Shown here piece after piece: positions 5,424-29,461 of a stretch of DNA of 64,000 bases; positions within the stretch are counted from its first letter, which is position 1, and the number at the start of each line of letters is the position of its first letter. Source of the stretch: Alistipes sp. UBA940. Its GTDB lineage: Bacteria; Bacteroidota; Bacteroidia; Bacteroidales; Rikenellaceae. The translations under genes and the position numbers were made by a program. The stretch covers positions 41,021 to 105,020 of the forward strand of contig DBDE01000043.1 in NCBI GenBank assembly GCA_002293425.1, read 5' to 3'. A model generated the notes under the pieces. That model was not told the origin of the DNA. It did no database searches and saw only the letters and a list, made by a program, of their open reading frames with translations.

Positions 5424-7019
5424 TTAAGGAGCGGGTTCGGGTTCAGGAACAACTGCCAACGATGTGTCGATGACTTTAACAACGACACCCTGACTTATAA
5501 CAGACTCTCCTATGAACGCAAAAAGCCGAACCTGACTGCCAATAGTATTTGTTCCGTCGCCATCGTGAGCCGCCGTAATCGTAACTTCGGTTCTCTGCTG
5601 ATTATTTGGGGTGATGGTCACCCACGGCTCAGTCGTATATCCTGGGCCGGTCGGATCACTATCCGGATTTTTCTCCGCCCTCCACTCAACCGTCTGCGTC
5701 GCATTGGACGGCTCAAGCTTCACGCTATATGTCGTCGTCTCCTGGCCGCCCTGACCATCGACATACACGGCTTTGTTACCCTCATTAATCCACAATTCCG
5801 TCGCCGGAATCGCCACCTCGACCCTCACGGTATCGGCAATGGCCTTGCCGCCAATAATGCGATTGTTGCCCGCCTCGTCGACCATATAGGCAACCACGTC
5901 GGCCTTGCCATCACCTCCGGCACGAACCGTAATGCTCTGCGGATCGTCCTCATCAGGTTCGATGGTGATAGCGGTAGTGCTGGCCGGAAGCACCTTCCAC
6001 CTCAACCTGTCGGTGGTCCGGGCCGGTTCGACCGTCGCCGTAAAGGTCGCAACCCCGTTGATCAACAACAAACGATAATCGTCATCCCCCTCGTCCTCAT
6101 CATCGCCGTCGTCTATCGAAACGCCGGTCGCCACAACAGGACGCACAGTATAAGTCACCGAAGAATCAACTTTAGTTGTGTCGCTATCGCTGGTCGCCGT
6201 AAAATACACCGTACCAGCACCGACAACCGTCACAACCCCGTCCTCGTCGATAACAGCAACATCATCGTTGCTCGAAACCCACGTCACATCGGGATTAGTG
6301 GCATTGTCAGGCAAAACGGCAACACCGAGAGTGAACGTATCGCCCATCATCAAATTGTTCATCACAACACCCTCGCCCGGAACCGCAACCAAAACATCGA
6401 TGCTCGTCACCGGCGTCATAGCCACCTGAACCACCACCTGGTCGCGCAAATCGCCCAAGGTCGCAACAATCGTCGCCCGTCCATTGCCCACATAACGCAC
6501 CGCCGTAACCTCCGCCGCACCGTCCGAAATCGACCTCACAGTGGCAATATCGGGATGAGAACTCGTCCACACCACCTTCTTATTGGTCGCATCCGACGGG
6601 CGGATAGTGGTGGTGAGGGTAAACGTCTCCCCCGATTCGAAGCCCGACGGCGCGCCCGTCTCATTGATCTCCAAAGAGTTCGCCGGAGTGGGAATAACCG
6701 TCACAGAGCACTGATCGCTGATATTATTGCTCGTCATAGCCGAAATCGTGGCCGTGCCCAGCGCGTGAGCCGTCACAAAACCGTCCTGATCGACCGACAC
6801 GACCGAAGCATTGGAGCTCTTCCACGTCAAAGTGAGATCGGTAGCGTTGGAAGGCACGATCGTAGCCTTAATCTGTTCGCGGCCGCCGACCTGCAAATTG
6901 AGATTGGAGGGCGTAACCTCCACCCCCTCGACAAAAATCAACGAATCAAGCGTCTCAACACAAGAAACCAAACCCGCCAAAACCAATATAAAAAACAATA
7001 ACCGTTTCATATCAATCAA
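5424..7019 (-). CDS. Lipoprotein with repeated bacterial Ig-like (Big_2) domains
   Basis: 531 aa. The lipobox is LAGLVSC. There are repeated units of the form V.V.P.NAT...V.W.SSN..VA.VD..G.V.A...G.A.I.A (TLTWKSSNASVVSVDQDGFVTAHALGTATISA, VVWTSSHPDIATV, VTWVSSNDDVAVIDEDGVVTVVGAGTVYFTA). The start may be the second Met, at 7010. Confidence 0.8.
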   Translation of the reverse strand: MIDMKRLLFFILVLAGLVSCVETLDSLIFVEGVEVTPSNLNLQVGGREQIKATIVPSNATDLTLTWKSSNASVVSVDQDGFVTAHALGTATISAMTSNNISDQCSVTVIPTPANSLEINETGAPSGFESGETFTLTTTIRPSDATNKKVVWTSSHPDIATVRSISDGAAEVTAVRYVGNGRATIVATLGDLRDQVVVQVAMTPVTSIDVLVAVPGEGVVMNNLMMGDTFTLGVAVLPDNATNPDVTWVSSNDDVAVIDEDGVVTVVGAGTVYFTATSDSDTTKVDSSVTYTVRPVVATGVSIDDGDDEDEGDDDYRLLLINGVATFTATVEPARTTDRLRWKVLPASTTAITIEPDEDDPQSITVRAGGDGKADVVAYMVDEAGNNRIIGGKAIADTVRVEVAIPATELWINEGNKAVYVDGQGGQETTTYSVKLEPSNATQTVEWRAEKNPDSDPTGPGYTTEPWVTITPNNQQRTEVTITAAHDGDGTNTIGSQVRLFAFIGESVISQGVVVKVIDTSLAVVPEPEPAP

Positions 7020-8296: not shown

Positions 8297-8369
8297 GATT
8301 CAGTAGCTCAGTTGGTAGAGCACATCCCTTTTAAGGATGGGGTCCTGGGTTCGAGCCCCAGCTGGATCA
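8297..8369 (+). tRNA. tRNA-Lys (anticodon TTT)
   Basis: 73 nt. Acceptor stem GATTCAG/CTGGATC. D arm AGCTCAGTTGGTAGAGC. Anticodon stem CATCC/GGATG with loop CTTTTAA. T arm GGGTTCGAGCCCC. Discriminator A, and no encoded CCA. Confidence 0.9.
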
Positions 8370-8434
8370 CCGAAATAGGCCCATATCAGCTGGCAAATCG
8401 GTATTCATAATCTTTTATAATCCTAAATTACCCA

Positions 8435-12622: not shown

Positions 12623-13912
12623 TTATTTTGTCAATATCAGTATATCGCTGTCCCCGAAGCTGTCGTAGCCTGAAACTATGACTTTTTCGCCGGGTGTGAG
12701 ACCTTCCAGCACCTCATAGTGCTGCGGGTTCTGGCGACCTATGCTAATCGTGCGTTTGTATGCACGGGAGCCGTCGGGCGACAGAACATAGATCCACTTG
12801 CCGCCGGTCTTTTGGTAGAACGAGCCGCGAGGGATCATCACCGCCTCGGTGGGTTGGCCGAGTTGCAGGTTGAGATAATAGGTCTGGCCGCTTCGGATAT
12901 TCTCCGGACGTTCGCCCGTGAAGGTGAAGTCGGCTTTGAACTGTCCGCTGCGTACTTCGGGATAGACCTTGTGAAGCAATACGCCGAAGGCCGTGCCCTG
13001 GCGATCGAAGGTAGCTTCGAGACCCGTCCTAACGCGGTCGATATAGTGTTCGCCCACCTGCGCTTCGATCTTGTAGTCCGACAGATCGTTGATCTGGCCT
13101 ATCTTCTGCCCCATCGTCACCGACTGGCCGAGAACCACGTCCAACAGGCCGAGTTCGCCGTCGATGGGCGATTTGATACGCAGGTTGTCGATACGTTGGC
13201 GGATAAGGGTCATATTGCGCTGCATATTGTCGAGATTGTCCTCCAACTGCTCTATCTGCACCGTTCGGTAAAGGGAATCCTGCTTCTGCCGCTCCATAAC
13301 GAGGTCGCGGCGGGTTACTGAGAGATCGTAATCCTCTTTCGATTCGAGCCATTCCTCGCGCGAGACAAGCTTCTCGCGATATAGCTCCGCGTTCTGCTCA
13401 TATTTTCGCTGCTTGCGTTGCACGTCGAGGTCGAGTTGGGCTTTTTCCTGCCGCAGGTTGAGCCTGTCCTGCTCCATAGCTATCATGGTGTTGCGCAGGA
13501 AGTTCTGTTTCTCGGCAAGCTGCGCCTCGCTGTCGAGTATCTGGAGGTTGAGTTGGTTGTTGCTCAAAACAATGATCACGTCGCCTTTCTTTACCGTAGC
13601 ACCCTCCTCAACGATCCTCTCTTCGACGATACCGCCTTCAAGTGGACTGAGCTGTACGGTCGTGATGGGCTGCACCTGCCCCGACACCCTTATGTAGTCG
13701 TTGAACTCGCCCGACTCCGCCGCGCCGATGGTTACCAGACGCTCTTCGACCCTGAGCGTGGACGAGTTATCACGAAATATCAGCCAGATCACCAAACACA
13801 CGAACAGAGCCCCAGCCAGCCAAGGCCAATTTTTCTTTCTAAGTACGGCCTTCCAGCCCTTCTTCTTTTCGATCTTGCGATCCATCTTTTGCGTTACTTC
13901 TTTGTTGTCCAT
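12623..13912 (-). CDS. HlyD-family periplasmic adaptor subunit
   Basis: 429 aa. It has an N-terminal membrane anchor, a long coiled-coil region (LNLQILDSEAQLAEKQNFLRN...) and lipoyl/beta-barrel motifs (SPLEGGIVEERIVEEGATVKKGDVI, IKSPIDGELG). Confidence 0.85.
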   Translation of the reverse strand: MDNKEVTQKMDRKIEKKKGWKAVLRKKNWPWLAGALFVCLVIWLIFRDNSSTLRVEERLVTIGAAESGEFNDYIRVSGQVQPITTVQLSPLEGGIVEERIVEEGATVKKGDVIIVLSNNQLNLQILDSEAQLAEKQNFLRNTMIAMEQDRLNLRQEKAQLDLDVQRKQRKYEQNAELYREKLVSREEWLESKEDYDLSVTRRDLVMERQKQDSLYRTVQIEQLEDNLDNMQRNMTLIRQRIDNLRIKSPIDGELGLLDVVLGQSVTMGQKIGQINDLSDYKIEAQVGEHYIDRVRTGLEATFDRQGTAFGVLLHKVYPEVRSGQFKADFTFTGERPENIRSGQTYYLNLQLGQPTEAVMIPRGSFYQKTGGKWIYVLSPDGSRAYKRTISIGRQNPQHYEVLEGLTPGEKVIVSGYDSFGDSDILILTK

Positions 13913-18184: not shown

Positions 18185-18235
18185 TCGCTAATTTTGCAGG
18201 ATGAAACGTGAAAATATATTTGCAGCGGCAGCGAT
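18185..18235 (+). repeat. 51-bp direct repeat, copy B
   Basis: Identical to 9375-9425. It supplies the TAATTTTG box, the ATG and the first 11 codons of the 18201 gene. Confidence 0.95.
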
Positions 18236-18842
18236 GATGCTGACCGCATTCGGATGCGGCACAAAGGAGTTCCAGCCGCAAACCGGCGACCTGCTCTTTC
18301 AAGTAGGATCGACAGGCGATATGACCCAAGCAATTGCACTCTCGACAGGAGACGGGCACGATGTGCCCTACACCCACGTGGCAATAGTCGTGATCGAACC
18401 CGACGGAACTTATGCTCTCGAAGCGTCAGGCAAAAAAGGCGTTGTGATGACACCGCTGGCGGAATTTCTCTCCGGCTCAGCCACCCTGAACGATAGACCC
18501 GTGGTTGCGGTGGGCCGACTGCGCTCACCCGAGCGCAAACATCTGGTCGGGCAAGCAATAAGCCGCGCCAAAACCTTTCTGGGGCAACCGTACGACAACT
18601 CATTCCTGCCCGACAACGAAAAAATGTATTGCAGCGAATTGGTCTGGGAGAGCTTTCGGGACGACAACGGGCCGATTCTCGAAGCCCGTCCGATGAATTT
18701 CCGCGCACCCGACGGCACGATGCCTCCCTATTGGACCGAGCATTTCGCGGCACTCGGCGAGCCGATTCCCGAGGGAGTCCACGGCACCAATCCCGACGAT
18801 ATGTCGCGCGACCAGGCCATTGTCATCGTTCACAGGTACTGA
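18201..18842 (+). CDS. YiiX/YaeF-like permuted papain-fold (NlpC/P60 superfamily) lipoprotein
   Basis: 213 aa with lipobox LTAFGCG. GDLLFQ...HVAIVV...YALEASGKKGVVMTPL...GQPYD..F......MYCSELVWESF matches the permuted Cys/His arrangement of this family. Confidence 0.65.
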   Translation: MKRENIFAAAAMMLTAFGCGTKEFQPQTGDLLFQVGSTGDMTQAIALSTGDGHDVPYTHVAIVVIEPDGTYALEASGKKGVVMTPLAEFLSGSATLNDRPVVAVGRLRSPERKHLVGQAISRAKTFLGQPYDNSFLPDNEKMYCSELVWESFRDDNGPILEARPMNFRAPDGTMPPYWTEHFAALGEPIPEGVHGTNPDDMSRDQAIVIVHRY

Positions 18843-20032
18843 GCGGCATTGCCCGACAAATCCGATTCGATAGAGAATTTGCGATAAGCCGAATCGCGCC
18901 AACCGTGATTATATATCCACTGGTTAGCGTCCAAAATCGACCGCCGAACATTGAAGGTCTTATAGTGGTAAGTTAGCCCCAAATAGGAGTTCACCACGCT
19001 GCGCAACTCCTCCGGCCGACGCGAAAAATATCCGTCGCCCTTAGCCAGCGCACTCTTGAAATTGTTAACCGTCCGGCGAGCAACATATATCCTGTGGGGC
19101 TTAACCACCTTGCCCAAAAACGTCACCCCGCGCCTGACATGTTGCAAATAAACCTTGCGCGGATGTACCCTGATGCCCAAATTGTCGGCCAAATAGGTGC
19201 GTATCTTCTCTATCGCGTCGACCAAAAACTGTTTCGAGGGATGGATGATGAAAAAGTCGTCCACATACCGCCCATAGTGTTCCACCCCCAGCGTGCGCTT
19301 CACAAAATGGTCGAAGTCGTTCAAATAGACATTGCTGAAAAGCTGGCTCGTCAGGTTGCCGATAGGCAGTCCGCAACCCTCGGGCGACGTGAACAAACTT
19401 TTGTCGGGCGGCAACCCGTTCCACTCGCTCATATCGCCCCGAATAAAGCAATCCTTCAACGGATCGTGGTAAATTATCTCTCGCGTGAGATATAACAGCA
19501 GGTCGTAATCTATCGCCTCGCTGAACCGTTGACCTCGCGAATTGCGCCGAGGGGCATATTTAAGCAGCGTGCCAGCCACCATCTCGAACAGCTTCTCGCG
19601 GTCGATGCTCATAAAATAGCCCGACAGGTCGAGCTTCAGCACATAAGCGTCGCGGGTGTAATTGTCCGAGCAACTGCGGATATGGTGATCGAGCCGCTCC
19701 ACGCCATAGCTCGTTCCGCGACCCTTGCGGCACGAATAGCAATCGGCAATGAACGACCGTTCGAAAATTTCGTTGGTATAGTTATAAAACAAGTGATGGA
19801 TGACCCGATCGGCGAACGAAGCGGCAAACACCTCGCGCTTAACGGGTTCCTCGATGATGAAAGCAACCGACCGACCAACCTTATAAGTGCGGTCGCGCAG
19901 GTGTTGGAACAGGCCGTAAATCTTATCTTCCATCTGCAACTCGAACTTGAGCTGGTTGCAGGTGTTGCGCTTATTGCGTCGGGCATCGTAATATGCCTGC
20001 AAGAGATCTTCGAAAAGTTTTTCTTCCGACAT
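18830..20032 (-). CDS. DGR-type reverse transcriptase
   Basis: 400 aa with catalytic YVDDFFII (YxDD). LPIGNLTSQLFSNVYL matches the [ILV]GxxxSQ signature that separates DGR RTs from group II intron and retron RTs. It lies 45 nt downstream of the TR. Confidence 0.9.
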   Translation of the reverse strand: MSEEKLFEDLLQAYYDARRNKRNTCNQLKFELQMEDKIYGLFQHLRDRTYKVGRSVAFIIEEPVKREVFAASFADRVIHHLFYNYTNEIFERSFIADCYSCRKGRGTSYGVERLDHHIRSCSDNYTRDAYVLKLDLSGYFMSIDREKLFEMVAGTLLKYAPRRNSRGQRFSEAIDYDLLLYLTREIIYHDPLKDCFIRGDMSEWNGLPPDKSLFTSPEGCGLPIGNLTSQLFSNVYLNDFDHFVKRTLGVEHYGRYVDDFFIIHPSKQFLVDAIEKIRTYLADNLGIRVHPRKVYLQHVRRGVTFLGKVVKPHRIYVARRTVNNFKSALAKGDGYFSRRPEELRSVVNSYLGLTYHYKTFNVRRSILDANQWIYNHGWRDSAYRKFSIESDLSGNAAQYL

Positions 20033-20077
20033 ATTTAGAAGTTGTTAAAAAAACAGGTGAGGGCGGGGCGACAAATT

Positions 20078-20264
20078 CTGGGCAAGGCAGCGGACGGAAA
20101 AACCGTTCGCATAATTGTTGCGATTCACCGGCCAAACGCCATTCGCGTTGAAGTTCAGGTTGTACCCGTTGGATCCGTCGTAGGGCGTAGAGGCCCAGTA
20201 GTTTCCGTTTGTACCCTGATTGTTCACAACACCCGTGTCCCAAGCACGGTTCCCGGCTGCCGGT
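20078..20264 (-). repeat. DGR template repeat (TR), 187 nt, non-coding
   Basis: Identical to 21491-21677 except at 20251 (T on the + strand, so A on the coding strand) versus 21664 (A on the + strand, so T on the coding strand). In the VR frame it is rich in AAC (Asn) codons. Confidence 0.9.
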
Positions 20265-20491
20265 TGTTAGTGATCGCTCTTCTCTTTGCAGCGGCGGACA
20301 GGATCTTTCACCCGAACGACGAACAAATGACAATCCCATATTTCAGAGTTGTCCATAACTGAAAGCAAAAACCCCCAGTGGATCACTGAATTTATCGTGG
20401 TTACTCTCTCCCAAACGGCACTCGACCGAGGAGACTCCGACCTTAACCCCGCCTTAGCTCACCTGTGTGTTTTTATATATTAAAGTAGTTT

Positions 20492-20872
20492 TCAGGTCAT
20501 TAAAATTTCCTCTTTTGCTTCTTGTTTTTCCAATTTTCGCAACGCCTTTTCCCAAGCCACAAGTTGGCTGGAGATGTTTCCCAGGTGGAGCACGATGCGG
20601 GCCATATTTTTTATCGGCATCTGGTGGAGGTCCCGAAGGAGCCTTACCTTCAACCGGATGGCCTCGACGTGTTCGCGTGCCTGCATCACGTGGGTCACTT
20701 TCTCTTTGTGCGTTTGTGCGCGGTAGATGCACAGTTGCAGTTCGCCGAGCAATTCTTTGAGTCTTTCGCCGATGGTGTACCGATATTCGCGCTTCATCGT
20801 TCGGCACGAGTGATACACCTCGATCACTAATTCACTTGCAGCTTTGAAAACGGGCAGTTGGTCATATTGCAT
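20492..20872 (-). CDS. avd: Four-helix-bundle protein, Avd-like DGR accessory factor
   Basis: 126 aa. MQYDQLPVFKAASELVIEVYHSCRTMKREYRYTIGERL resembles the 23S-rRNA-intervening-sequence/four-helix-bundle family to which DGR Avd proteins belong. It lies between the target gene and the TR. Confidence 0.75.
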   Translation of the reverse strand: MQYDQLPVFKAASELVIEVYHSCRTMKREYRYTIGERLKELLGELQLCIYRAQTHKEKVTHVMQAREHVEAIRLKVRLLRDLHQMPIKNMARIVLHLGNISSQLVAWEKALRKLEKQEAKEEILMT

Positions 20873-21335
20873 ATTCGAGTGTAGTTTTCAATTCCGAGAC
20901 AAACATCATACACTCCATCGGGGTTTTGTTCTCGACATTGAAATCCCTCAGGCGATCGACGAGTTTGTCGGCAAATTCGGTACGCCGGTCGGGCGCAGGT
21001 GCAAATTTAGGTTGTTTTATGTAAAGTGGTGCACCTTTTTTCCAAATTTCGAAATCTTTTTCTACAACTCTTTCGGGTGATTGCAGTACTATCAGCTTCT
21101 CTGTTTTTTCGATAATCGGCGCGGTAATAGCCCTCAGAGCCGAATCGGGAAATCCCAGGGAGGCCATTTCCAGACCAAGTTTCTTGATATATTTTTTTTG
21201 CGCACGGTATGGTTTAATGTGTGTCGAAAACAGATAAGCGGACTTTTCGTATGCTATCCAAAACAGCCGCTCCTTGTGGAGATGAATCCGGTCGGTGTTG
21301 GACTGTTCCATTTCAAAAATATCCTGCTTCATCAT
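20862..21335 (-). CDS. Small MutS-like (MSL-type) DGR accessory ORF
   Basis: 157 aa. The N-terminus (RLFWIAYEKSAYLFS...LGLEMASLGFPDSAL) resembles the mismatch-binding domain I pattern of MutS. The C-terminus (LVDRLRDFNVENKTPMECMMFVSELKTTL) resembles the MutS C-terminal LD..LTP.EAL..L..LK helix. The comparison is by eye only. Confidence 0.45.
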   Translation of the reverse strand: MMKQDIFEMEQSNTDRIHLHKERLFWIAYEKSAYLFSTHIKPYRAQKKYIKKLGLEMASLGFPDSALRAITAPIIEKTEKLIVLQSPERVVEKDFEIWKKGAPLYIKQPKFAPAPDRRTEFADKLVDRLRDFNVENKTPMECMMFVSELKTTLEYAI

Positions 21336-21410
21336 GATATTTCGTTGTTTTTTTGTGTCAAAATTTTTTCTTCGAATTTTTCGACGGAAAAACCGTCGAA
21401 AAATTGTTTG

Positions 21411-21441
21411 AAAAAAGGTCGGGGCTCGGGAAGCCCCGACC
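21411..21441 (-). terminator. Rho-independent terminator-like hairpin after the DGR target gene
   Basis: 10-bp stem GGTCGGGGCT/AGCCCCGACC with loop CGGGA, followed on the minus strand by TTTTTT. Confidence 0.55.
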
Positions 21442-21462
21442 TGATAAAAACAATCATCGGAC

Positions 21463-21483
21463 GAGCGGAAACGAGTTCCGCTC
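21463..21483. other. Hairpin/cruciform-forming inverted repeat just 3' of the VR
   Basis: GAGCGGAA-ACGAG-TTCCGCTC (8-bp stem, 5-nt loop), beginning 4 nt after the target stop codon. It is absent from the equivalent flank of the TR. Confidence 0.6.
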
Positions 21484-21487
21484 TAAA

Positions 21488-23956
21488 TTACTGGGCAAGG
21501 CAGCGGACGGAAAAACCGTTCGCATAATTGTTGCGATTCACCGGCCAAACGCCATTCGCGTTGAAGTTCAGGTTGTACCCGTTGGATCCGTCGTAGGGCG
21601 TAGAGGCCCAGTAGTTTCCGTTTGTACCCTGATTGTTCACAACACCCGTGTCCCAAGCACGGTACCCGGCTGCCGGTAAAACCTGCGTTGTAGGGTTCTG
21701 GAAGCCGTTTTCCACGGGGAATTTAGCCAGGCCCGGGGTTGTAGCCGTACCTGCCACAGGTGTTCCGGTAAAGTCAACACCGCCCACACTCCAGCTCTGA
21801 GGATAGCTGTGTCTCAGGGCCGCGTTGTTGTTGTGCCCCGGAGAGATGGTGTTGGTGTCGCCAACCCAGCCCGGGTTGAAACGCCAGTTGTAGTTGGCCA
21901 CGCCCGGATCGGCTGCCGTTTCTGTGCGCCACGTAGTCCAGTAGGTGTTCGGATTATAGTTTGCCACAGGTGTACCGTTGGTGTTGGGCAACTTGGTGTC
22001 GGTACCGTTCACGAAATAGATATTTTCGTACACCGTCGGCAGGCGCCACTGCTTGTTGTCGATCTTGCCCTTCTTGATGTCGTCGATGGACAATCCGGCC
22101 AGCTTACAGGGGTCGCCCTTGCCCGCCTTGACGTTGTCCAGGTTGTGGTATTCGGGATCCGAAACGTTCAACTTGCCCGCCACGAAGTCGGCGTTCACAT
22201 ACTGCGGAATGGTCAACCAGCCTTCATTGGCAGTACCCGCGGGAACAACGTCCGAAGGGTTGTAAGCGATGTCGGTCGCCGCATCGAATGTGTCACTGGT
22301 GGTCTCGGGAGCGATACCCACGATGCCACCGAACTTAAAGTAAGGCATCTTGTCGATGCTGTTAACATTGGTACCCCACTTGCCCACCTTCAACATACCT
22401 CCGTCCAGATAGAGGATATTGGCCTCGCCACCCGTGAAGCGGCGCACGCGGATTCTCTGGTCGAGGTCGGGATCGTCGTTCGAACGAACGATCACGTCGG
22501 CCTCCATATATTCCAGCGAACCGCCGCCAACAGTCACCTCGAAAGTGTTTTTCCACGTCAAAGCGCGGGTTTCTACCGCAACGGGTTCGAGAGTGGTGGT
22601 GACCGAAATCGGGTTGTCCAGACCGCCCACAATGTATTTCACCTCGACGGTGGTATTGGCATCGTCCGAAGTGGTGGTGAAAATCATATTGGCAGGTTCG
22701 GCACCCGGGCCGTCGAGCACATTGAGTGTACCCAGCAGGTCGTCAGCGTCATTGTCGTCGAGCAACCACTCCACATTCTCATAAGCAGCAGCAACCGCAG
22801 CGGCATCGTCCGGATCGGCAAACACGACCACACTCTGAGCAGCATTTTCGCCGGGCTCGGTGGGAAGGGTGTTGTCCTCGCCATTGTTGTTGGTGTACCA
22901 GTCGTCTTCGATAACCGAGCTCTTGTCCAGACCTGGTTCGAGACGGATGGTATAGCGATGATTGGCCAAAATATCGGTGTCCTCGCTAACCACGACCGGC
23001 AACAGGATAGGCTGGCCGCCCAGCGTACCTTCGACGATGATCTGGGTACCCGTTCCGTCGGCCTTGATGGTGGTCGGATAGAGGTAGAACACGCTCTGAG
23101 CCACCCAACGATAGCCCGCTTCGGGATTCATATCGTCATAGGTCAAACCCGCACCGTTCAACGCTTCATAGTCGTCATAAGTGACGAGCGGATCGATAAC
23201 CGTCGGATCGGCCGAACCGAAGATGGGGCCCAGGGCAGGTGCATCGGCAATGTAAACATTGGTCACCACAAAGATGTCGGACGCCGGAACACCAGCACCG
23301 TGATTGGGATTCTCGATGTCGAAACGCGCCTCACGACGGATCAACTCGCCCGTCTCCACAATCTTTCCGGTCAACACAAGCTCCTTCGAAACCGAGAAGA
23401 GCAGCCTCGTCGTAGCTCCGTCGGGCTTGGCAATGGGCACCAGGCCCGAACCGTTGTCGGGCAGAGCGTCGGTAAGCGAATTGACGAAATCGGCACCCGT
23501 GGGCAACGCACCATCGTCCAACGCATCCTGAATAGCCGGGAACGTACCTTCGGCAAACGCGCCCGACGACTTGCCATTGGCCACGAAATAGAAAGTGTAG
23601 GTCTCGCCTATGCGGCCCGGAGTGTCGATCCAATCCTGGTCGATGACGATGTGGTAGGTCTGACTGCCGCTACCGGCTTCGGTCGCGGTGGGAGCACCGA
23701 TCTCATAGTCGACACCCTCTTCGAGCAACATCACGTCGCCCGTGGCCGCCGCGGCATAAACACGAATGTCCGCAGCGTCGATGTCCCACTCAACGGAGGT
23801 TGCAATGTCGGCCCTGGTAACAAACGGGGCCTGGGGCGTCTTAAAGCTGAAGCTCAACGCCGCCGAATGACCCTCGATCTTCTGGGGGTCTTTGGCACAC
23901 GATACCGCGCCGGCAAACATCAGCGCAGCAAGTGCATATTTCAAAACATTTTTCAT
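21488..23956 (-). CDS. DGR target: fimbrial (type V pilus, tip-adhesin-like) lipoprotein with a C-terminal lectin-fold variable region
   Basis: 822 aa with lipobox FAGAVSC. The N-terminus is paralogous to the upstream fimbrillin gene (FVTRA.IAT..EW, ARFDIENP, FYLYPT). The C-terminus ...GNYWASTPYDGSNGYNLNFNANGVWPVNRNNYANGFSVRCLAQ is the WxS...FSVRC pattern of DGR-diversified C-type-lectin-fold / Fib_succ_major-like domains. Confidence 0.85.
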   Translation of the reverse strand: MKNVLKYALAALMFAGAVSCAKDPQKIEGHSAALSFSFKTPQAPFVTRADIATSVEWDIDAADIRVYAAAATGDVMLLEEGVDYEIGAPTATEAGSGSQTYHIVIDQDWIDTPGRIGETYTFYFVANGKSSGAFAEGTFPAIQDALDDGALPTGADFVNSLTDALPDNGSGLVPIAKPDGATTRLLFSVSKELVLTGKIVETGELIRREARFDIENPNHGAGVPASDIFVVTNVYIADAPALGPIFGSADPTVIDPLVTYDDYEALNGAGLTYDDMNPEAGYRWVAQSVFYLYPTTIKADGTGTQIIVEGTLGGQPILLPVVVSEDTDILANHRYTIRLEPGLDKSSVIEDDWYTNNNGEDNTLPTEPGENAAQSVVVFADPDDAAAVAAAYENVEWLLDDNDADDLLGTLNVLDGPGAEPANMIFTTTSDDANTTVEVKYIVGGLDNPISVTTTLEPVAVETRALTWKNTFEVTVGGGSLEYMEADVIVRSNDDPDLDQRIRVRRFTGGEANILYLDGGMLKVGKWGTNVNSIDKMPYFKFGGIVGIAPETTSDTFDAATDIAYNPSDVVPAGTANEGWLTIPQYVNADFVAGKLNVSDPEYHNLDNVKAGKGDPCKLAGLSIDDIKKGKIDNKQWRLPTVYENIYFVNGTDTKLPNTNGTPVANYNPNTYWTTWRTETAADPGVANYNWRFNPGWVGDTNTISPGHNNNAALRHSYPQSWSVGGVDFTGTPVAGTATTPGLAKFPVENGFQNPTTQVLPAAGYRAWDTGVVNNQGTNGNYWASTPYDGSNGYNLNFNANGVWPVNRNNYANGFSVRCLAQ
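21491..21677 (-). repeat. DGR variable repeat (VR)
   Basis: The last 187 coding nt of the target gene. 186 of 187 positions are identical to the TR. Confidence 0.9.
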
Positions 23957-23992: not shown

Positions 23993-25513
23993 TTAGTTGG
24001 CTGCGCGAACAATGCTGATCGTCTTTTTGCCGTTGTCGTCATCCCAGCCGATGAGCTGGAATGTGGCGTCGAGAGCCTCGTCGGTATCGGTTATCACGAA
24101 GCGATACTGATCGGTTGTCTCCTTGGTCGCACGGTCGTACATAGCCGTCTTGGTAACCGCGATAAGTCCATCAGCGTCGCCCGAGAGGATATAGGCCGTA
24201 CCGAACTTCGAGGTCACGTCGATAACGAACTCGCCGTCGGCAACAGCCGTTCCCTGATCAATCGTCCAGGTGAAGGCCAGATCGGTGCTCTCGAAATCGG
24301 CCGCATTTGCGTTGGCGAGCTCGAAAGCGGCACCCAAAGTACCTGTGTAGTCGACACTCGGAGCCTCGTCGTTAACACGCGAACCCGGAGCGGCAGGCAA
24401 AATCTCGCCCGTGTCGTAATCCTGCGAAATGAGGTCGATGCTCATCTTGGTGGTGTTCACGCGCAGAATATATCGGTTGTTGCGCTTGATGTCCTTGTCG
24501 GCCACGATTGGCAAAACCTGCTCTACACCATTGTCGCCCTGACGGCCAAGGATGTAGATCTGGGTTTCGGTCGCCGGATCGTCGCCCAGCTTGGTGGGAT
24601 AGAGATAGAACACCGCCGGAGCCACCGTCTCTTCGGTCAGATTGGTCGAACCCAGCTCGGTGTAATCGCTTGCGCTCAGGCCCGGAAGTTCAACCAGGTC
24701 GTGGAGCTCCACGTCGGTCGCCCAATTGGTCGCATTGGCGTTGCCGAAAACGTAGCCCTTTTGTGCCGCGTTGGAAACCAAAATGCGAGTGATGACAAAC
24801 GCACCCTTCGACTCATCGCCCGGAATATCGTCGTGGTCGCCCTGAGCCTCGGGATTCTCGATGTCGAAACGCGCCACGGCACGCTCCAGCTGGCCACGCA
24901 CCGAGGTGTTGCTCGAAATGGTCACCGGACCCACAACGTCGCTGAACAGCAGGTTCTTAGTGCTGTTGCCGGGAGTCTCGCCGTCCGGATGTTCGATGTC
25001 CTCCATCTGGCCGTCGGTCACGACCAAAGCCTTGGTCAACGCCTGCTTGAAGGTCGCCTCCGAAGCCGAGCTCAGATCGGGCGCACCCTTCATCGACGAG
25101 TTCGCATTGGCCACGAAGTAGAAGGTCACGTCCTTACCCGAGTTGGCAGTCAACCAATCTTCGGCCATGGTGATGGTGTACTTCTGCGAAGAGATCTCGT
25201 CGAAGTCGTCGTTGATCAAGTAGTCTTCGTCCGCTTCCAGCGTTTGGTCGCCGTTCCCAAGACGAAGTTTGCTCATCTGACCCATTTCCTGATCGCCCTG
25301 TCCCTGTTCGGCGATGGCAACATAAACATCGAGGGTCTTCACATTCCACTCGGCATCGGTCGCGATAGTTGCGCGGGTGACGAACGGGTGGTGAGGTTTG
25401 TCGAACGCAATGGTCAGACCGAGTTTCTCCTTAGCCGGAGTGTCTGCCGGATCGTTCGTACACGACGCCAGCCCCACTGCAAGGACTGTCATCAAAATAA
25501 ACAGTTTTTTCAT
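23993..25513 (-). CDS. Fimbrillin-family (FimA/Mfa-like) lipoprotein
   Basis: 506 aa with lipobox VGLASC. It shares N-terminal motifs with the DGR target (HHPFVTRATIATDAEWNVKTLDVYV, ARFDIENPEA, VFYLYPT). Confidence 0.7.
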   Translation of the reverse strand: MKKLFILMTVLAVGLASCTNDPADTPAKEKLGLTIAFDKPHHPFVTRATIATDAEWNVKTLDVYVAIAEQGQGDQEMGQMSKLRLGNGDQTLEADEDYLINDDFDEISSQKYTITMAEDWLTANSGKDVTFYFVANANSSMKGAPDLSSASEATFKQALTKALVVTDGQMEDIEHPDGETPGNSTKNLLFSDVVGPVTISSNTSVRGQLERAVARFDIENPEAQGDHDDIPGDESKGAFVITRILVSNAAQKGYVFGNANATNWATDVELHDLVELPGLSASDYTELGSTNLTEETVAPAVFYLYPTKLGDDPATETQIYILGRQGDNGVEQVLPIVADKDIKRNNRYILRVNTTKMSIDLISQDYDTGEILPAAPGSRVNDEAPSVDYTGTLGAAFELANANAADFESTDLAFTWTIDQGTAVADGEFVIDVTSKFGTAYILSGDADGLIAVTKTAMYDRATKETTDQYRFVITDTDEALDATFQLIGWDDDNGKKTISIVRAAN

Positions 25514-25555: not shown

Positions 25556-26641
25556 TTAATTCAAGGTTCCTCCTTCGGTCCAGTCGGCGACCGAAAGGCC
25601 GCCCATCGGATTCATTATTATCTTGTCGCCGTCGATCACAATGTCTATTATATAGTCCTGCTTCAGCTCGTGATCGAGGTTATAGCCGAAGTGGGCAAAG
25701 TACTGTCCGAGATCTATCTCGCGCGGCAACACCATCGGGTCGTTCTCGCCCCGCGTACCGTCGGGCGCAAAATAGAGTTTCATAATAAGCGGCGTTGCAT
25801 TCTTCACCCGATAATTGACAAACTGGCCCCAAACCTCGCTGTCGGCGTTCAAATAGGTGGTGTTGCTGTGGTCTATCACGTTGCCCCGCTCGAACTGCGA
25901 GTGGACCAAATGGTGGATCACCCTGTTATCGCTCCACGGATAATCGTCGTGGGCGCGTGTATCGTGTTGCCGAGCCACAAAACTCCCCGCCGGATAGAGC
26001 CACTCGGGCATCAACCTGTACTGCGAAACCACATCCTCCAACACCGCATAGTACGTTCCGCGCTTAGGAACCGGACTATTGCGCCACGTCACACGAAACC
26101 TCACCTGGAAATGGGCATTCACCATATCCACCCTCACACGCGTCGCTCCACCCTCCTCCCTGACCGTGAAAGTGCGATAACCGTGAAACAACTCGCCGCA
26201 CGGACCCCGGGTCCCGTCCTCGAAAGTGTCGGCGTTCTCCAACGTCATCCGCAAATCCTCCCTGTCCGTCATCCCTACCACCGGCAACTGTCCCGTACGC
26301 GCATCCCAAACCGTACTGCAATCACCGTTGCCCACCGCCAGGATCGAATATTTGCCCGCCTCCAACTGCAACTCCGAGTTCATATAATCGGTACACATAT
26401 CATCCGTCACCCGCCGAATGTGATAAAGTTTATCATTCTCGTCGAAAATATACTCGTCGATGAACTTCACCCAATACACAATCTTATTCTCGTCCGTAGT
26501 GTTCTCCTCGTTGTAATCATAGCGAAGCTGCACAGTGTAAGTGCAAATCTCTATCTCGTGCATATCCACGTCGCAACCCGCCAGCAAAGCAAAAAGCAAC
26601 ATCGCCGCTGTCGCCGCAAAATATTTCAAAGATCGTCTCAC
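25556..26641 (-). CDS. FimB/Mfa2-family fimbrial anchor-like lipoprotein
   Basis: 361 aa with a GTG start and lipobox LLAGC. The size and the sequence after the lipobox (YTVQLRYDYNEENTTDENK...) resemble Mfa2-type anchors. It lies between the DUF3868 gene and the fimbrillin gene, and has a GTGA overlap with the upstream gene. Confidence 0.6.
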   Translation of the reverse strand: MRRSLKYFAATAAMLLFALLAGCDVDMHEIEICTYTVQLRYDYNEENTTDENKIVYWVKFIDEYIFDENDKLYHIRRVTDDMCTDYMNSELQLEAGKYSILAVGNGDCSTVWDARTGQLPVVGMTDREDLRMTLENADTFEDGTRGPCGELFHGYRTFTVREEGGATRVRVDMVNAHFQVRFRVTWRNSPVPKRGTYYAVLEDVVSQYRLMPEWLYPAGSFVARQHDTRAHDDYPWSDNRVIHHLVHSQFERGNVIDHSNTTYLNADSEVWGQFVNYRVKNATPLIMKLYFAPDGTRGENDPMVLPREIDLGQYFAHFGYNLDHELKQDYIIDIVIDGDKIIMNPMGGLSVADWTEGGTLN

Positions 26642-27369
26642 TGTCCGCGTCTATTGTTGCGCCGGTACCGCCACACACCCTGTGCCTGCTCCTTGCAACT
26701 CTCGCACCCCTCCGGTACCTCTATTTCGGCCCTCTCCACCGCCTTCACCTGAGGCGCACGCGTCTGCACCTCCCTGACCACATAAACCACCCGCTCGGGA
26801 GGCGTGCCAAACTGCTCTATCAGCCTCGCCGTACTCGCCAACCAACCCTTCGAACAACTCTGGCGATACTCCCTCACCATCAGCATTGCGCCCGCCATCC
26901 ACCCCTGATAAGGCACGCTAAGGCGATAATGCAGATTATAGGAATCTCTTCTCTTAACCTTATCGTAAGTGTAAAAAGGTTCCGGAGCATACTCGTCACT
27001 CAGCAACTCGCGCCGCTTCTCCAACCGCGTCCTTATCGCGCTCGAATAGACCACCGTCGGCAACGCCATCTTCCGATCCGCATTCTCGATGGCAAACTCC
27101 AGCACTATCCGCCCGCCCCTTCGTATATTCACCCCGCTCGCCCGCACATCCACGTCGATCAACAACTCCTTCTCACTCACCCGCGACGAAATATTTGTAA
27201 ACTCGATGCGCTGAACGCTTTGAGCTTCGCAAATGAAAAAATGAAAAAATGAAAAAATGAAAACAAGTAAAAGATTGCCGCGCCTCGCTCTCAATGACGG
27301 CGAACAACAAGTGTCATTGCGAGGAGAACAATGTTCGACGAAGCAATCTATATATCTCGATCTTTTCAT
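26638..27369 (-). CDS. DUF3868-like protein
   Basis: I prefer the ATG at 27369, which forms an ATGA overlap with the DUF3575 stop, over the track start at 27552. RIEFTNISSRVSEKELLIDVDVRASGVNIRRGGRIVLEF resembles DUF3868 proteins, which follow DUF3575 genes in Bacteroidales pilus loci. The N-terminal 30 aa are encoded by repeat-like DNA. Confidence 0.6.
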   Translation of the reverse strand: MKRSRYIDCFVEHCSPRNDTCCSPSLRARRGNLLLVFIFSFFHFFICEAQSVQRIEFTNISSRVSEKELLIDVDVRASGVNIRRGGRIVLEFAIENADRKMALPTVVYSSAIRTRLEKRRELLSDEYAPEPFYTYDKVKRRDSYNLHYRLSVPYQGWMAGAMLMVREYRQSCSKGWLASTARLIEQFGTPPERVVYVVREVQTRAPQVKAVERAEIEVPEGCESCKEQAQGVWRYRRNNRRGQ

Positions 27370-28052
27370 TTTATCATAAATGTGAGCGCAATGCCCGCTT
27401 TCGTGGGGCCGAAATAGTGGCGGTCGCGGCTCGCGGCCAGCTCGTCGCACTCGAAACAGGCGAATTTGTCGTAGTCGATATGCAGGTAACCGCCGCCCAA
27501 AGTGAACTCCATCGCCCACCGACCGCCGCCCAACGGCATATGGTAACCCCAACTGATGCCCGCGCCCATCACGTCGCCCTTATAGCGATGACTGACAAAC
27601 ACGTCGGTCAAAAAGTCGACCTGGCCGATGTTGTACTCGCCATATATCGCGTGCAAGCCCACAAAGTGTCGCTCAAAACGCTGACAAAACCAATATCGGA
27701 ACTCGGGCTGGACAAACCAAATCTGGTTGGTCGACTCTTTTTGGAGCTGAAAAGGATTATACACCACACCCGTATCCATTGTCCAGCGGCGGGCAATTCC
27801 GAACTCAAAACCGGCATTGAGCGTCGTTGTGGCCAGATATAGTGCGTTGGTCTTCACGGCAAACTTGGGCAGGTAGAGCTCGTCCGGGCGCGTTATCTGT
27901 TCGCCCGAAACCAGATAGAGCTCCTGCTTGGGAACCGAACGGTAGGTCACGCGGCGCACCTGAGCAGAGGCCGGAAAGCTCCAGAACCAGCCCAGCATCA
28001 GGGTTGCGAAAATAAGCGAATTAATCGCCCTATTTTTTCGATTTTTTGCCAC
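27366..28052 (-). CDS. DUF3575-like outer-membrane beta-barrel protein
   Basis: 228 aa. FAVKTNALYLATTTLNAGFEFGIARRWTMDTGVVYNPF...EFRYWF...GLHAIYGEYN matches the DUF3575 pattern. It is the first gene of the pilus-like operon. Confidence 0.75.
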   Translation of the reverse strand: MAKNRKNRAINSLIFATLMLGWFWSFPASAQVRRVTYRSVPKQELYLVSGEQITRPDELYLPKFAVKTNALYLATTTLNAGFEFGIARRWTMDTGVVYNPFQLQKESTNQIWFVQPEFRYWFCQRFERHFVGLHAIYGEYNIGQVDFLTDVFVSHRYKGDVMGAGISWGYHMPLGGGRWAMEFTLGGGYLHIDYDKFACFECDELAASRDRHYFGPTKAGIALTFMIK

Positions 28053-28093: not shown

Positions 28094-28347
28094 ATCTGTC
28101 GCCTAAAAAGCGACAGATGTTTTCACACGGCAAATGTAAAACATATTTTTTTATTTCTACAAATAAATCGTTAAAAAAATAAATATTTTTTGCCTATACA
28201 TACGACGAACGACCCTTGAATTAGGGGCCGTTCTGCGAGCTAATACTCTGGCTACAAGCCACTTATATCGCTAAGATAAACCGTCGTAATATAACTACAC
28301 ATCTGTCGCTTTTAAAGCGACAGATGTTAACGTAAAAGCGACAGATG
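28094..28347. repeat. Cluster of GCGACAGATG / CATCTGTCGC motifs forming two hairpins plus one extra copy
   Basis: ATCTGTCGC at 28094-28102 pairs with GCGACAGATG at 28110-28119. CATCTGTCGC at 28300-28309 pairs with GCGACAGATG at 28317-28326. A further GCGACAGATG lies at 28338-28347, and a related TCGACAGATA at 29571-29580. Confidence 0.8.
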
Positions 28348-28435: not shown

Positions 28436-29461
28436 CTAAACCCTGACAGAATTGCCCACAGCAACGTCCGGCAACTTCCTCGGCCGACCGCGCGGACGCT
28501 TAGGCGGAGCAACAACAGCATCCGACACCAACCGCGAAGCATCGTCCAACGAATTGAGGTACTCCTTGGTCTTCTTGTGGCTCTGATAGCCCAGCCCCTC
28601 GCTGATCAAGTCGATGGGCAAACCCGCGCTCTGGGCCACCGTAGCCCAGCTGTGACGCGCATCCTGGGTCGAAAAACGCTTATTTATCCCCAACAATTTC
28701 GCCACCCGTTTCAGCCTCTCGTTCTGCAACCTAAGGCCGTTCTCATACTGAAGCATAGGGTTTTTACGCGAATCGACAATCACCGGGAAAAGATACTCGC
28801 TCCCCTCCACCTGCGGCTCGAACCACTCCAAAATGCGCCTCATAGGCTCGTGAACCACAACCTCCACCAACTGCTCCGTCTTGCGCCGAGCATAGCGAAT
28901 AACGTCGCCCTCACGATCGCTCTTTTTCAAAAAAGCCATATCGACAAAGCTCATCCCCCGCGCGTGATAGCAAAACAGAAAAATCGCCAACGCATTCCGC
29001 AAAGCAAGCGGCATCTCGCCCTCGACATCGAACTCCAACGCGGCCAACTGCTGCAACTCGTCCTGCGAAAGAGCCATCTTCTTGACCGTCGCAACACCCG
29101 TATACGTGGTCGAAAATGGGCTCACGGTGCGCTCCGTAACGATTTTTTCGGCCACGGCCTTATTGTAAATCGAGCGCAGCGTCCGCATATAAAACGAGAT
29201 GGAATTGAGGTTCAGCCCCTGCTTTTTGAGATGTTTCTGAAAATCGCCCATCAGGGAAGAATTGATCTGCTCCAGCCTCAAATCTTCGCCGCAAAAGTCG
29301 ACCAACCGCCTCACAGCCGTCCTATACGCCCGCGCGGTCCGGCCGAAACCGTCGTGCTCCAATTCGACAGCCAGCTTCTCGGCATAGCGCACCAAGCTAC
29401 CGCCCACCTGCACGGCAGACCGTAGCTTATCCACGATATCGTTTATTCCGTAATTTCTCAC
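28436..29461 (-). CDS. Tyrosine-type site-specific recombinase/integrase
   Basis: 341 aa. N-terminal SAM-like domain (LMGDFQKHLKKQGLNLNSISFYMRTLRSIYNKA). Catalytic region ...ARHSWATVAQSAG...LGYQSHKKTKEYL (RHxxxT and a terminal Tyr). The C-terminal tail KRPRGRPRK resembles an AT-hook. Confidence 0.85.
   Translation of the reverse strand: MRNYGINDIVDKLRSAVQVGGSLVRYAEKLAVELEHDGFGRTARAYRTAVRRLVDFCGEDLRLEQINSSLMGDFQKHLKKQGLNLNSISFYMRTLRSIYNKAVAEKIVTERTVSPFSTTYTGVATVKKMALSQDELQQLAALEFDVEGEMPLALRNALAIFLFCYHARGMSFVDMAFLKKSDREGDVIRYARRKTEQLVEVVVHEPMRRILEWFEPQVEGSEYLFPVIVDSRKNPMLQYENGLRLQNERLKRVAKLLGINKRFSTQDARHSWATVAQSAGLPIDLISEGLGYQSHKKTKEYLNSLDDASRLVSDAVVAPPKRPRGRPRKLPDVAVGNSVRV

Follow-up and report, generated by a model that had tools for sequence, protein, structure and literature searches.

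A diversity-generating retroelement with a predicted pilus-tip target in an uncultured termite-gut Bacteroidales bacterium

Background

Can a retroelement whose template and variable repeats differ at a single position be one that diversifies its target? The question is raised by a diversity-generating retroelement (DGR) in a 64,000 nt stretch of DNA assigned to Alistipes sp. UBA940 (GCA_002293425.1, contig DBDE01000043.1, positions 41,021 to 105,020 of the forward strand), which we call the window and number from its first nucleotide; the source organism is an uncultured termite-gut Bacteroidales bacterium, and the element is chromosomal. A preliminary description, drawn from the sequence of the window, proposed a complete DGR at 18830-23956 with all of its parts on the minus strand, and an open reading frame (ORF) list, a repeat search and alignment verified every component at those coordinates. 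All parts of a DGR are present, and copies of the locus that are otherwise identical vary at adenines of the template repeat (TR). Judged by its sequence the element is very probably a functional DGR; the original observation is confirmed and its interpretation supported.

Results

Layout of the element and its repeats

Read along the minus strand, the element consists of a gene for an 822-aa lipoprotein pilin (21488..23956) carrying the variable repeat (VR) at its 3' end, an inverted repeat, a terminator, an Msl-type ORF, avd, a structured RNA, the TR and a gene for a 400-aa reverse transcriptase (RT). The VR (21491..21677) is 187 nt long and makes up the final 62 codons of the target gene. 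The TR (20078..20264), also 187 nt, is non-coding, contains 44 adenines, is separated from avd by a gap of 228 nt, and is followed by a 45 nt spacer (20033..20077, minus strand) that has no stable fold of its own (z +0.25) and reaches to the RT start codon. The arrangement first described, a target with a 3' VR, two small ORFs, a non-coding TR and an RT beginning 45 nt beyond it, is borne out in full. A second VR or further copy of the repeat was looked for in the window, and none was found.

The only mismatch between the two repeats of the window is A20251 in the TR against T21664 in the VR, which changes Asn to Tyr (N765Y) and has, as had been pointed out, the direction expected of mutagenic homing. 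Homology between TR and VR stops at a 1 nt indel, the T of the stop codon being missing from the TR, and 5 further bases match beyond it. Read in the frame of the VR, the TR contains 14 AAY codons, and 39 of its 44 adenines fall at codon positions 1 and 2; the VR lies within a coding target, and the adenines appear set to vary its codons without creating stops. An inverted repeat with an 8-bp stem and a 5-nt loop (21463..21483, minus strand; z -4.1, 0 of 200 shuffles fold as well) begins 7 nt beyond the TR/VR homology and has no counterpart after the TR, and corresponds to the GC-rich inverted repeat found in known DGRs downstream of the initiation of mutagenic homing (IMH) sequence (PMC5758913). 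It is followed, behind the target gene, by an intrinsic-terminator-like hairpin (21410..21442, minus strand) with an 11-bp GC stem and a T run (-14.3 kcal/mol, z -5.9). No Bacteroidetes -7 promoter motif (TAnnTTTG) occurs from the VR to msl, nor from avd to the TR.

Variation among three copies of the locus

Two other assemblies from the same termite-gut project (PRJNA193472) contain this locus, L081 (ENA ERZ922776, run SRR797685) and L085 (ERZ922779, run SRR797682). Over 13,203 nt L081 has 16 differences from the window, of which 14 are within the VR; over 14,469 nt L085 has 14, every one within the VR. The TR is identical in all three assemblies. The VR of the window has 1 mismatch to the TR, those of the other two assemblies 14 and 15, and pairwise differences between VRs number 14 (window and L081), 14 (window and L085) and 18 (L081 and L085). 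Across the three VRs there are 20 distinct variable sites, and all 20 correspond to TR adenines, an outcome with a probability of about 4e-15 for 20 sites placed randomly among the 187. Differences between TR and VR are restricted to adenines of the TR; the substitutions go to C, G and T, and 12 residues are changed in L081. The preliminary description held that population data in which the repeats varied at non-adenine positions would refute a DGR, a check that the locus passes.

The final 28 nt of the VR (21518..21491) are invariant in all three alleles, consistent with an IMH-like region, and this unvarying 3' end is succeeded by flanking sequences that differ between TR and VR. The three target proteins make up a 90% cluster that has no other member. 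In JGI metagenomes an exact-pattern scan for the 3' junction of the VR, as a source of further alleles, gave 0 matches, and the exact target protein of the window had no match in a gene-position index. Separately, the only non-VR differences between the window and L081 in 13.2 kb, at 13544 and 13553, lie 9 nt apart in a membrane-fusion (HlyD-type) gene of an efflux operon. Three alleles of an otherwise identical 14-kb locus are direct evidence of adenine-restricted diversification in a natural community.

The near-unmutated VR of the window

Among these alleles the VR of the window, with 1 of 44 adenines changed, is the outlier. It is also unusual beside more distant elements: in 80 loci encoding relatives of the RT (28-63% identity) among GTDB species representatives, numbered L001 onward, the full-length TR/VR pairs have 10-36 mismatches. 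If adenines change at the approximately 33% rate of the two other alleles, the probability that homing yields no more than one change is about 5e-7. The single-mismatch VR is not representative of the locus, and in the living population TR and VR are probably not so nearly identical.

We consider it somewhat likelier than an even chance that this VR is an assembly collapse or consensus, in which bubbles of mixed VRs between anchors shared by TR and VR were resolved to the high-coverage TR allele, the living VRs being diversified. The substitutions in the other two assemblies of the same clone, the mismatches in the pairs of relatives and the improbability of a nearly unchanged homing product all agree with this. 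Only the 5'-most variable site would survive such a collapse, because it lies 13 nt from the edge of the repeat, and the surviving T21664 is that site and is common to L085. A Logan contig of SRR797682 spans the whole TR unbroken and ends at 21519, one base before variable site 21520. In a k=31 graph assembly, reads containing a TR-identical VR should not allow a contig to run unbroken through the TR and then stop in this way; the stop at 21519 therefore points to heterogeneity at 21520, and not to a TR-identical VR, in the reads of SRR797682. This explanation must be tempered by the fact that the exact 822-aa product is on record in an NCBI assembly (on a 120,549-nt contig) and is hence the output of a full assembly, by shared anchors of just 24-28 nt, so that small-k stages would be required, and by an argument drawn from assemblies and not from reads.

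It is possible, if rather doubtful, that the window instead holds a genuine naive allele, either ancestral to both others by one homing event each or produced when a RecA-type gene conversion from the TR reset the VR. The alleles do form a star with the window at its center (distances of 14 and 14, against 18 between L081 and L085), and L085 retains T21664, which a 5' crossover located 3' of the site would be expected to leave in place. Tight repression has been reported for pilus-type Bacteroides DGRs (bioRxiv 10.1101/2024.11.15.621889). However, an almost unmutated VR is seen in none of the full-length TR/VR pairs of relatives, the scenario requires an uncommon event free of mutagenesis, whose product then became dominant, and the observations that favor collapse also count against it; collapse is probably the better account of the VR of the window. 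Near-identical TR/VR pairs in metagenome assemblies deserve suspicion before they are read as 'inactive' or 'naive'.

The reverse transcriptase

The RT gene (18830..20032, minus strand) encodes 400 residues that match Pfam RVT_1 (E 1.7e-14) and PHROG 1423, reverse transcriptase (311 bits), and its translation contains the motifs YVDDF and LPIGNLTSQ. A PDB sequence search returned as its closest solved relative 8ub7 chain A (328 aa; E 4.4e-32, in two aligned blocks over residues 6-330), followed by group II (1.6e-5) and retron-type RTs with E of 1e-5 or weaker. We take 8ub7 chain A to be bRT of Bordetella phage BPP-1, its 328 aa agreeing with the length of bRT. The catalytic residues named for bRT agree with the YMDD aspartates of this chain, D215 and D216 (bioRxiv 10.1101/2023.10.23.563531), and in the search alignment the motif LPIGNLTSQLFSNVY of the RT is aligned to IPIGSLTSQLFANVY of bRT. 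The NCBIfam models of group II, retron, Abi and DRT enzymes and the defence RT models of PADLOC all score far under their cutoffs. The preliminary description had named clustering with group II intron, retron or Abi RTs as a result that would overturn it; in profile hidden Markov model and PDB searches the RT appears to belong with DGR RTs and not with those enzymes.

The relatives of the RT behave similarly. Of the 80 loci, 44 carry two repeats (79-207 nt) that differ at 7-36 positions, and in each at least 75% (typically 85-100%) of the mismatches are adenines in the RT-proximal copy. No RT in the GTDB species representatives searched is more than 63% identical to that of the window.

That the locus is instead a relic without activity, or a simple sequence duplication next to an unrelated RT of a group II intron, retron or defence system, with a repeat that has no templating role, is very improbable: its repeats are 99.5% identical in the window taken alone and the best-scoring named NCBIfam model for the RT is a group II RT/maturase (88 bits), but those 88 bits are far under the cutoff of 300, the best structural relative, the BPP-1 DGR RT, leads by 27 orders of magnitude in E-value, an Rfam scan of the region found no group II intron RNA domains, Avd, Msl, the AAY-codon design and the VR-specific inverted repeat are all in place, and variation between assemblies is confined to VR sites that are TR adenines.

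At its 3' end the RT gene overlaps by 13 nt (18830-18842) the 3' end of a convergent gene for a C92-family (YiiX-like) permuted papain peptidase (18201-18842, plus strand); there is no room for a terminator between the two. In one relative, L013 on a Cloacimonadota contig, a group II intron D1-D4-6 match (44.8 against 49 bits, 5898-6014) lies ~3.5 kb downstream of the DGR RT and is unrelated to the element.

Accessory proteins

The ORF at 20492..20872 (minus strand) encodes a small, basic protein (126 aa, isoelectric point 9.45) that scores above the curated cutoff of Pfam bAvd (PF22296; 41.5 bits against 40) and matches PHROG 3206, 'Avd protein of DGR' (E 3.7e-14), as expected of Avd; NCBIfam DivGenRetAVD scores 41 bits, under its cutoff of 80, and a PDB sequence search gave nothing usable. 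The second ORF (20862..21335, minus strand) overlaps avd by 11 nt and encodes 157 aa, or 149 aa from an alternative ATG at 21311 that is used by gene callers. It belongs to a family of 1803 representatives at 50% identity, about 150-170 aa long, and its homologues adjoin avd or the RT in 18 of the 80 RT-relative loci. By synteny, as a small protein in a DGR cassette together with avd, it appears to fit the MSL accessory class of Wu et al. 2018 (PMC5758913) and the Msl of Bacteroides pilus DGRs.

Of the labels first given to these two ORFs, 'Avd-like' is borne out by the Pfam and PHROG matches, and 'MutS-like' goes back to a weak, sub-threshold similarity. The 157-aa ORF has no match above any curated threshold; its sole recurrent Pfam similarity, shared by 5 of 10 homologues, is to MutS_I (E 0.014, 16 bits, cutoff 20.6). 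A single-sequence PDB search gave nothing usable, PDB searches with profiles of 10 and 134 sequences returned no MutS and no match, hhalign against the N-terminus of E. coli MutS gave a probability of 0.5%, and Foldseek with a model of pLDDT (predicted local distance difference test) 86 found nothing significant.

The target protein and the pilus operon

The 822-aa target comprises an N-terminal pilin module, a middle region and a C-terminal FISUMP/Lcl_C-type domain. It is the final gene of an operon on the same strand which begins with a DUF3575 protein (27366..28052; Pfam DUF3575, 207 bits) and continues with a Mfa2-family anchor pilin (25556..26641, 361 aa; Pfam Mfa2, 67 bits, cutoff 21.2) and a Mfa1-family pilin, the probable stalk subunit (23993..25513, 506 aa; NCBIfam fim_Mfa1_fam, E 2.6e-10, under cutoff); a small ORF also lies upstream in the operon. 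The N-terminal 370 aa of the target are 32% identical to the adjacent Mfa1-family pilin (E 1e-35), and both proteins have a lipoprotein signal with lipobox Cys (in the target MKNVLKYALAALMFAGAVSC, ending AGAVSC) and PFVTRA, at residues 43-48 of the target, the position of the type V pilin processing site (bioRxiv 10.1101/2024.11.15.621889). With a lipobox Cys, an Arg-containing motif downstream of it at which cleavage is predicted, and a location behind the anchor (Mfa2) and stalk (Mfa1) genes, the target has the features expected of a type V pilin. No curated pilin model scores above its cutoff (NCBIfam FimD_tip_adhes gives 21 bits against 170), and a PDB sequence search with the whole target gave no usable match.

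The C-terminal 223 residues retrieve FISUMP/TIGR02145-type proteins in a protein search. Lcl_C (formerly DUF1566) matches the target with E 1e-5 (26 bits, under the cutoff of 34.9), and of 42 aligned homologues of the C-terminus 32 match Fib_succ_major and 30 match Lcl_C (E<=0.01). A profile of this region matches the C-terminal domain of Legionella Lcl (PDB 8q4e, E 0.0013), and its domain class appears to be that of category d of Wu et al., the C-type lectin class CLec2 of VRs (PMC5758913). An AlphaFold (AF2) model of the C-terminus has a pLDDT of 68 overall and of ~89 over the last 70 aa, which contain the VR; with it Foldseek found in BFVD only phage FISUMP-domain proteins (E 4e-3, 62 residues). 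The check proposed in the preliminary description, modeling of the C-terminus against the C-type-lectin fold, gave no significant match in the PDB to solved CLec variable proteins (Mtd, TvpA) or others, a test limited by the moderate quality of the model. Apparent membership of the FISUMP/Lcl_C family nevertheless suggests a C-type-lectin fold for the VR domain.

A word-indexed protein search returned just two proteins as whole-target homologues. The only other whole-target homologue, P0014 (801 aa; L086, GCA_002293505.1, DBDI01000010.1, 1507-13512), is 36% identical over 79% of the query. Like the target, it ends an operon with a Mfa2 pilin; no DGR lies beside it, and the convergent gene next to it encodes a protein of more than 2800 aa in which Flg_new_2 and Fib_succ_major domains recur.

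A structured RNA upstream of the TR

The interval between avd and the TR contains an RT-7-like structured RNA (20260..20445, minus strand) that ends at the 5' boundary of the TR. The Rfam model RF03028 (RT-7) aligns over its full length on the RT strand with 37.8 bits (E 3.8e-6), short of its gathering score of 116.8, and the alignment ends at 20263, one base inside that boundary. Sub-threshold RT-7 matches between Avd and TR also occur in L001, L005, L010, L018, L021, L028 and L029 (relatives score 40-64 bits), and in those with a defined TR the 3' end of the RNA lies within a few bases of the TR start; a scan of 12 related loci with Rfam at gathering thresholds found nothing.

Five RT-7-like sequences, folded independently by free energy, arrive at the same layout of a 5' hairpin, a 7-bp closing helix and an internal hairpin directly after the 5' strand of that helix. 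The closing helix covaries (AGUGAUC/GAUCACU, GGCAGCC/GGCUGCU, GGCGGCC/GGCCGCU). A covariance model built from the window sequence, R1, found 12 copies, and in their alignment 96.2% of paired cells can pair, compared with 72.2% in shuffles (0 of 500 reach the observed value) and 31-52% in slid controls. Double-sided, compensatory changes occur at 38 of the 50 pairs; the fitting of the alignment to the structure favors all of these figures. Covariation thus argues for a conserved secondary structure.

This RNA also appears to pair with the far end of the TR. The strand CGAUAAAUUC (20388..20397), in the junction 5' of the closing helix and before helix P2, is complementary to GAAUUUGUCG (20069..20078), which is formed by the last base of the TR and the next 9 nt and pairs with 20397..20388; both are on the minus strand. 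The two strands covary, with equivalent pairs in L005 (UGUCGGCC/GGCCGACA), L018 (AUCAAUCC/GGAUUGGU), L028 (AAUUAGUCC/GGACUGAUU) and L010 (UUUUAAAUCC/GGAUUUGAAG). Summed over 7 loci, cognate pairing gives -70 kcal/mol, compared with -54.5 ± 5.2 when partners are permuted, a value reached by ~0.1% of permutations and by no derangement. From these comparisons we regard the RNA structure, with its long-range helix, as real. The upstream strand lies ~125 nt from the TR, within the large upstream domain; a duplex of the BPP-1 kind, sought between 40 nt upstream and 140 nt downstream of the TR, did not outdo shuffled sequences, the true partner being further upstream.

BPP-1 has a duplex, named the 'cPRT Stop', between sequences on the two sides of the TR, and such duplexes are predicted in many DGRs (bioRxiv 10.1101/2023.10.23.563531). 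The helix described here probably places the TR in a closed loop and bounds or positions reverse transcription. We offer, tentatively, a broader model in which the RNA of Msl-containing Bacteroidota DGRs is rearranged relative to that of BPP-1: an upstream scaffold of RT-7 type would bind protein and bound the reaction, its junction strand would clamp the 3' boundary of the TR with the TR held in a closed loop, and a downstream spacer like that of BPP-1 would not be needed. If this is true, priming and termination of cDNA synthesis are organised differently in these DGRs, and a function is explained for the orphan Rfam motif RT-7. A published screen for TR duplexes covered 40 nt upstream and 100 nt downstream of the TR, and we infer that it would miss such a lineage because the upstream strand is ~125 nt away.

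Rikenella-type relatives have several copies of the RT-7-like RNA upstream of one RT (L006 5915-7744, with four copies; L002 2368-4492; L004 1679-2750; L008 3524-7919), together with many TR-like repeats of ~190 nt that are ~65-75% identical to one another, with mismatches at all four bases. These may be tandem cassettes of RNA element plus TR, i.e. multi-template DGRs.

Genomic context

Among the ~40 larger ORFs scanned in the window there are no conjugation or phage genes, and hence no sign of an integrative and conjugative element (ICE) or prophage. The neighbors are housekeeping genes, encoding cysteinyl-tRNA synthetase, a peptide chain release factor, peptide deformylase, pyruvate:ferredoxin oxidoreductase, efflux pumps and a two-component system, and the GC content of the element (0.53) is close to that of its surroundings (0.54). 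Under the criteria used in the Bacteroides study it counts as a 'cellular' DGR. A tRNA-Lys gene (8297-8371) lies 10 kb from the DGR, with an ABC/MacB efflux system and a two-component system in between; no integrase or transfer genes were seen beside it. DGR-carrying ICEs of Bacteroides integrate at tRNA-Lys (bioRxiv 10.1101/2024.11.15.621889).

Upstream of the pilus operon, two inverted-repeat arms of 27 nt (28094-28120 and 28299-28325; 93% complementary, 178 nt apart) enclose the only Bacteroidetes-type -7 motif found there (TACATTTG, at 28138), and a tyrosine recombinase gene (Phage_integrase, 28436-29461, minus strand) stands immediately beside them. The segment 28094-28325 looks like a candidate invertible promoter, which would phase-vary the pilus whose tip the DGR diversifies; its orientation is the same in both assemblies that cover it.

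Discussion

Several points weigh against taking this locus for a functional DGR with the parts named above. The case for RT-dependent cDNA synthesis is drawn from sequence, and the three alleles come from assemblies, not from reads. The VR of the window, with 1 of 44 adenines changed, would on its own fit an element that is silent or was duplicated only recently. For the 157-aa ORF the similarity to MutS is under threshold, with no MutS recovered by sequence or fold search, and the C-type-lectin fold of the variable domain was not recovered either, Foldseek against the PDB with a moderately confident model giving no match with E below 2. We weigh these against the complete set of parts and the restriction of variation to TR adenines, and still consider a functional DGR very probable.

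Such an element would operate as follows. A transcript, probably starting past the terminator behind the target gene, would encode Msl and Avd and contain the RT-7-like RNA, the TR and a short 3' tail. The RT, together with Avd, would reverse-transcribe the TR and misincorporate opposite template adenines. The cDNA would then replace the VR in the final 62 codons of the target, with a 3' junction in the invariant GC-rich 28 nt beside the VR-specific inverted repeat. As a result ~14-20 residues (an upper bound) of the C-terminal FISUMP/Lcl_C-type ligand-binding domain would be randomised without stop codons, because the adenines occupy AAY codons. Since the target is the final gene of a type V pilus operon of anchor, stalk and tip, the element would therefore vary the binding specificity of the pilus tip. 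In this scheme we infer the boundaries of the transcript, the roles of Avd, Msl and the upstream RNA, and the localisation of the target to the pilus tip.

The class of DGR is already well described, and a specialist would not be surprised by another. The value lies in the instance, a pilus-tip DGR with clear limits that belongs neither to the human gut nor to any mobile element that can be recognised; it provides a natural experiment in three alleles, a caution about collapsed VRs, and, through the link of an RT-7-like RNA to the 5' edge and 3' boundary of the TR, a testable model of DGR RNA organisation in Bacteroidota.

Comparison with known systems

The nearest counterparts are the pilus-tip DGRs of B. 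fragilis 638R, B. thetaiotaomicron VPI-5482 and B. uniformis 8492 described by Macadangdang et al. (bioRxiv 10.1101/2024.11.15.621889). As in those, the variable protein is the final gene of an anchor-stalk type V pilus operon, begins with a signal, lipobox Cys and Arg-containing processing motif, and joins a stalk-like N-terminal module to a C-terminal VR domain, with the VR at its extreme C-terminus; the accessory proteins are Avd and Msl, and the 44 adenines of the TR are within the 30-45 of Bacteroides TRs. By every criterion that can be tested on its sequence the element is a member of this group. The preliminary description had recognised a pilus-tip target of a class known in gut Bacteroidales, and the target and Avd/Msl set do match the Bacteroides DGRs; the host here is from a termite gut and not a human one. 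The element is distinct from that group in host and habitat (an uncultured termite-gut bacterium), in divergence (an RT at most 63% identical to those of the species representatives searched, and a sole whole-target homologue from the word-indexed search at 36%) and in having no recognisable mobile element: most Bacteroides pilus-tip DGRs are on ICEs at tRNA-Lys or on prophages, whereas no such genes are among the window ORFs scanned.

More broadly, its sequence places the element among the Avd plus MSL, CLec2-type DGRs of Wu et al. As described (PMC5758913), the Legionella pneumophila DGR (LdtA) and other category d CLec2 DGRs resemble it in having a lipoprotein target, MSL together with Avd and, as apparently here, a VR over DUF1566/Fib_succ_major motifs, and some category d targets carry fimbrial (P_gingi_FimA) N-terminal domains. 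Unlike these, the target here stands within a complete type V pilus operon.

With the DGR of Bordetella phage BPP-1 (mtd-avd-TR-brt) the element shares a homologous RT and Avd, the order of target, accessory gene, TR and RT, adenine-specific variation of the VR, an invariant GC-rich 3' segment followed by an inverted repeat found only at the VR, and a duplex of sequences upstream and downstream of the TR. It differs in its extra Msl gene and in its target, a chromosomally encoded protein of apparent FISUMP/Lcl_C type (CLec2 class, PMC5758913) in place of the Mtd family in a phage context. The RNA differs as well: in BPP-1 a structured spacer (Sp) of 140 nt downstream of the TR supplies the primer, whereas here there are 45 nt downstream and a large structured RNA upstream, and the upstream strand of the helix is adjacent to the TR in BPP-1 but ~125 nt away here.

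That upstream RNA resembles Rfam RF03028, RT-7 (Weinberg et al. 2017, PMC5737381), in its full-length alignment, its location on the RT strand, its proximity to an RT gene and its multi-stem layout, at which free-energy folding arrived independently in five loci. For the motifs RT-1 to RT-19 no specific function was given except for RT-10 in BPP-1 (PMC5737381). Unlike RF03028 as described, the copy in the window scores 37.8 bits against 116.8, and its position abutting the TR and its pairing with the 3' boundary of the TR are observations of this analysis.

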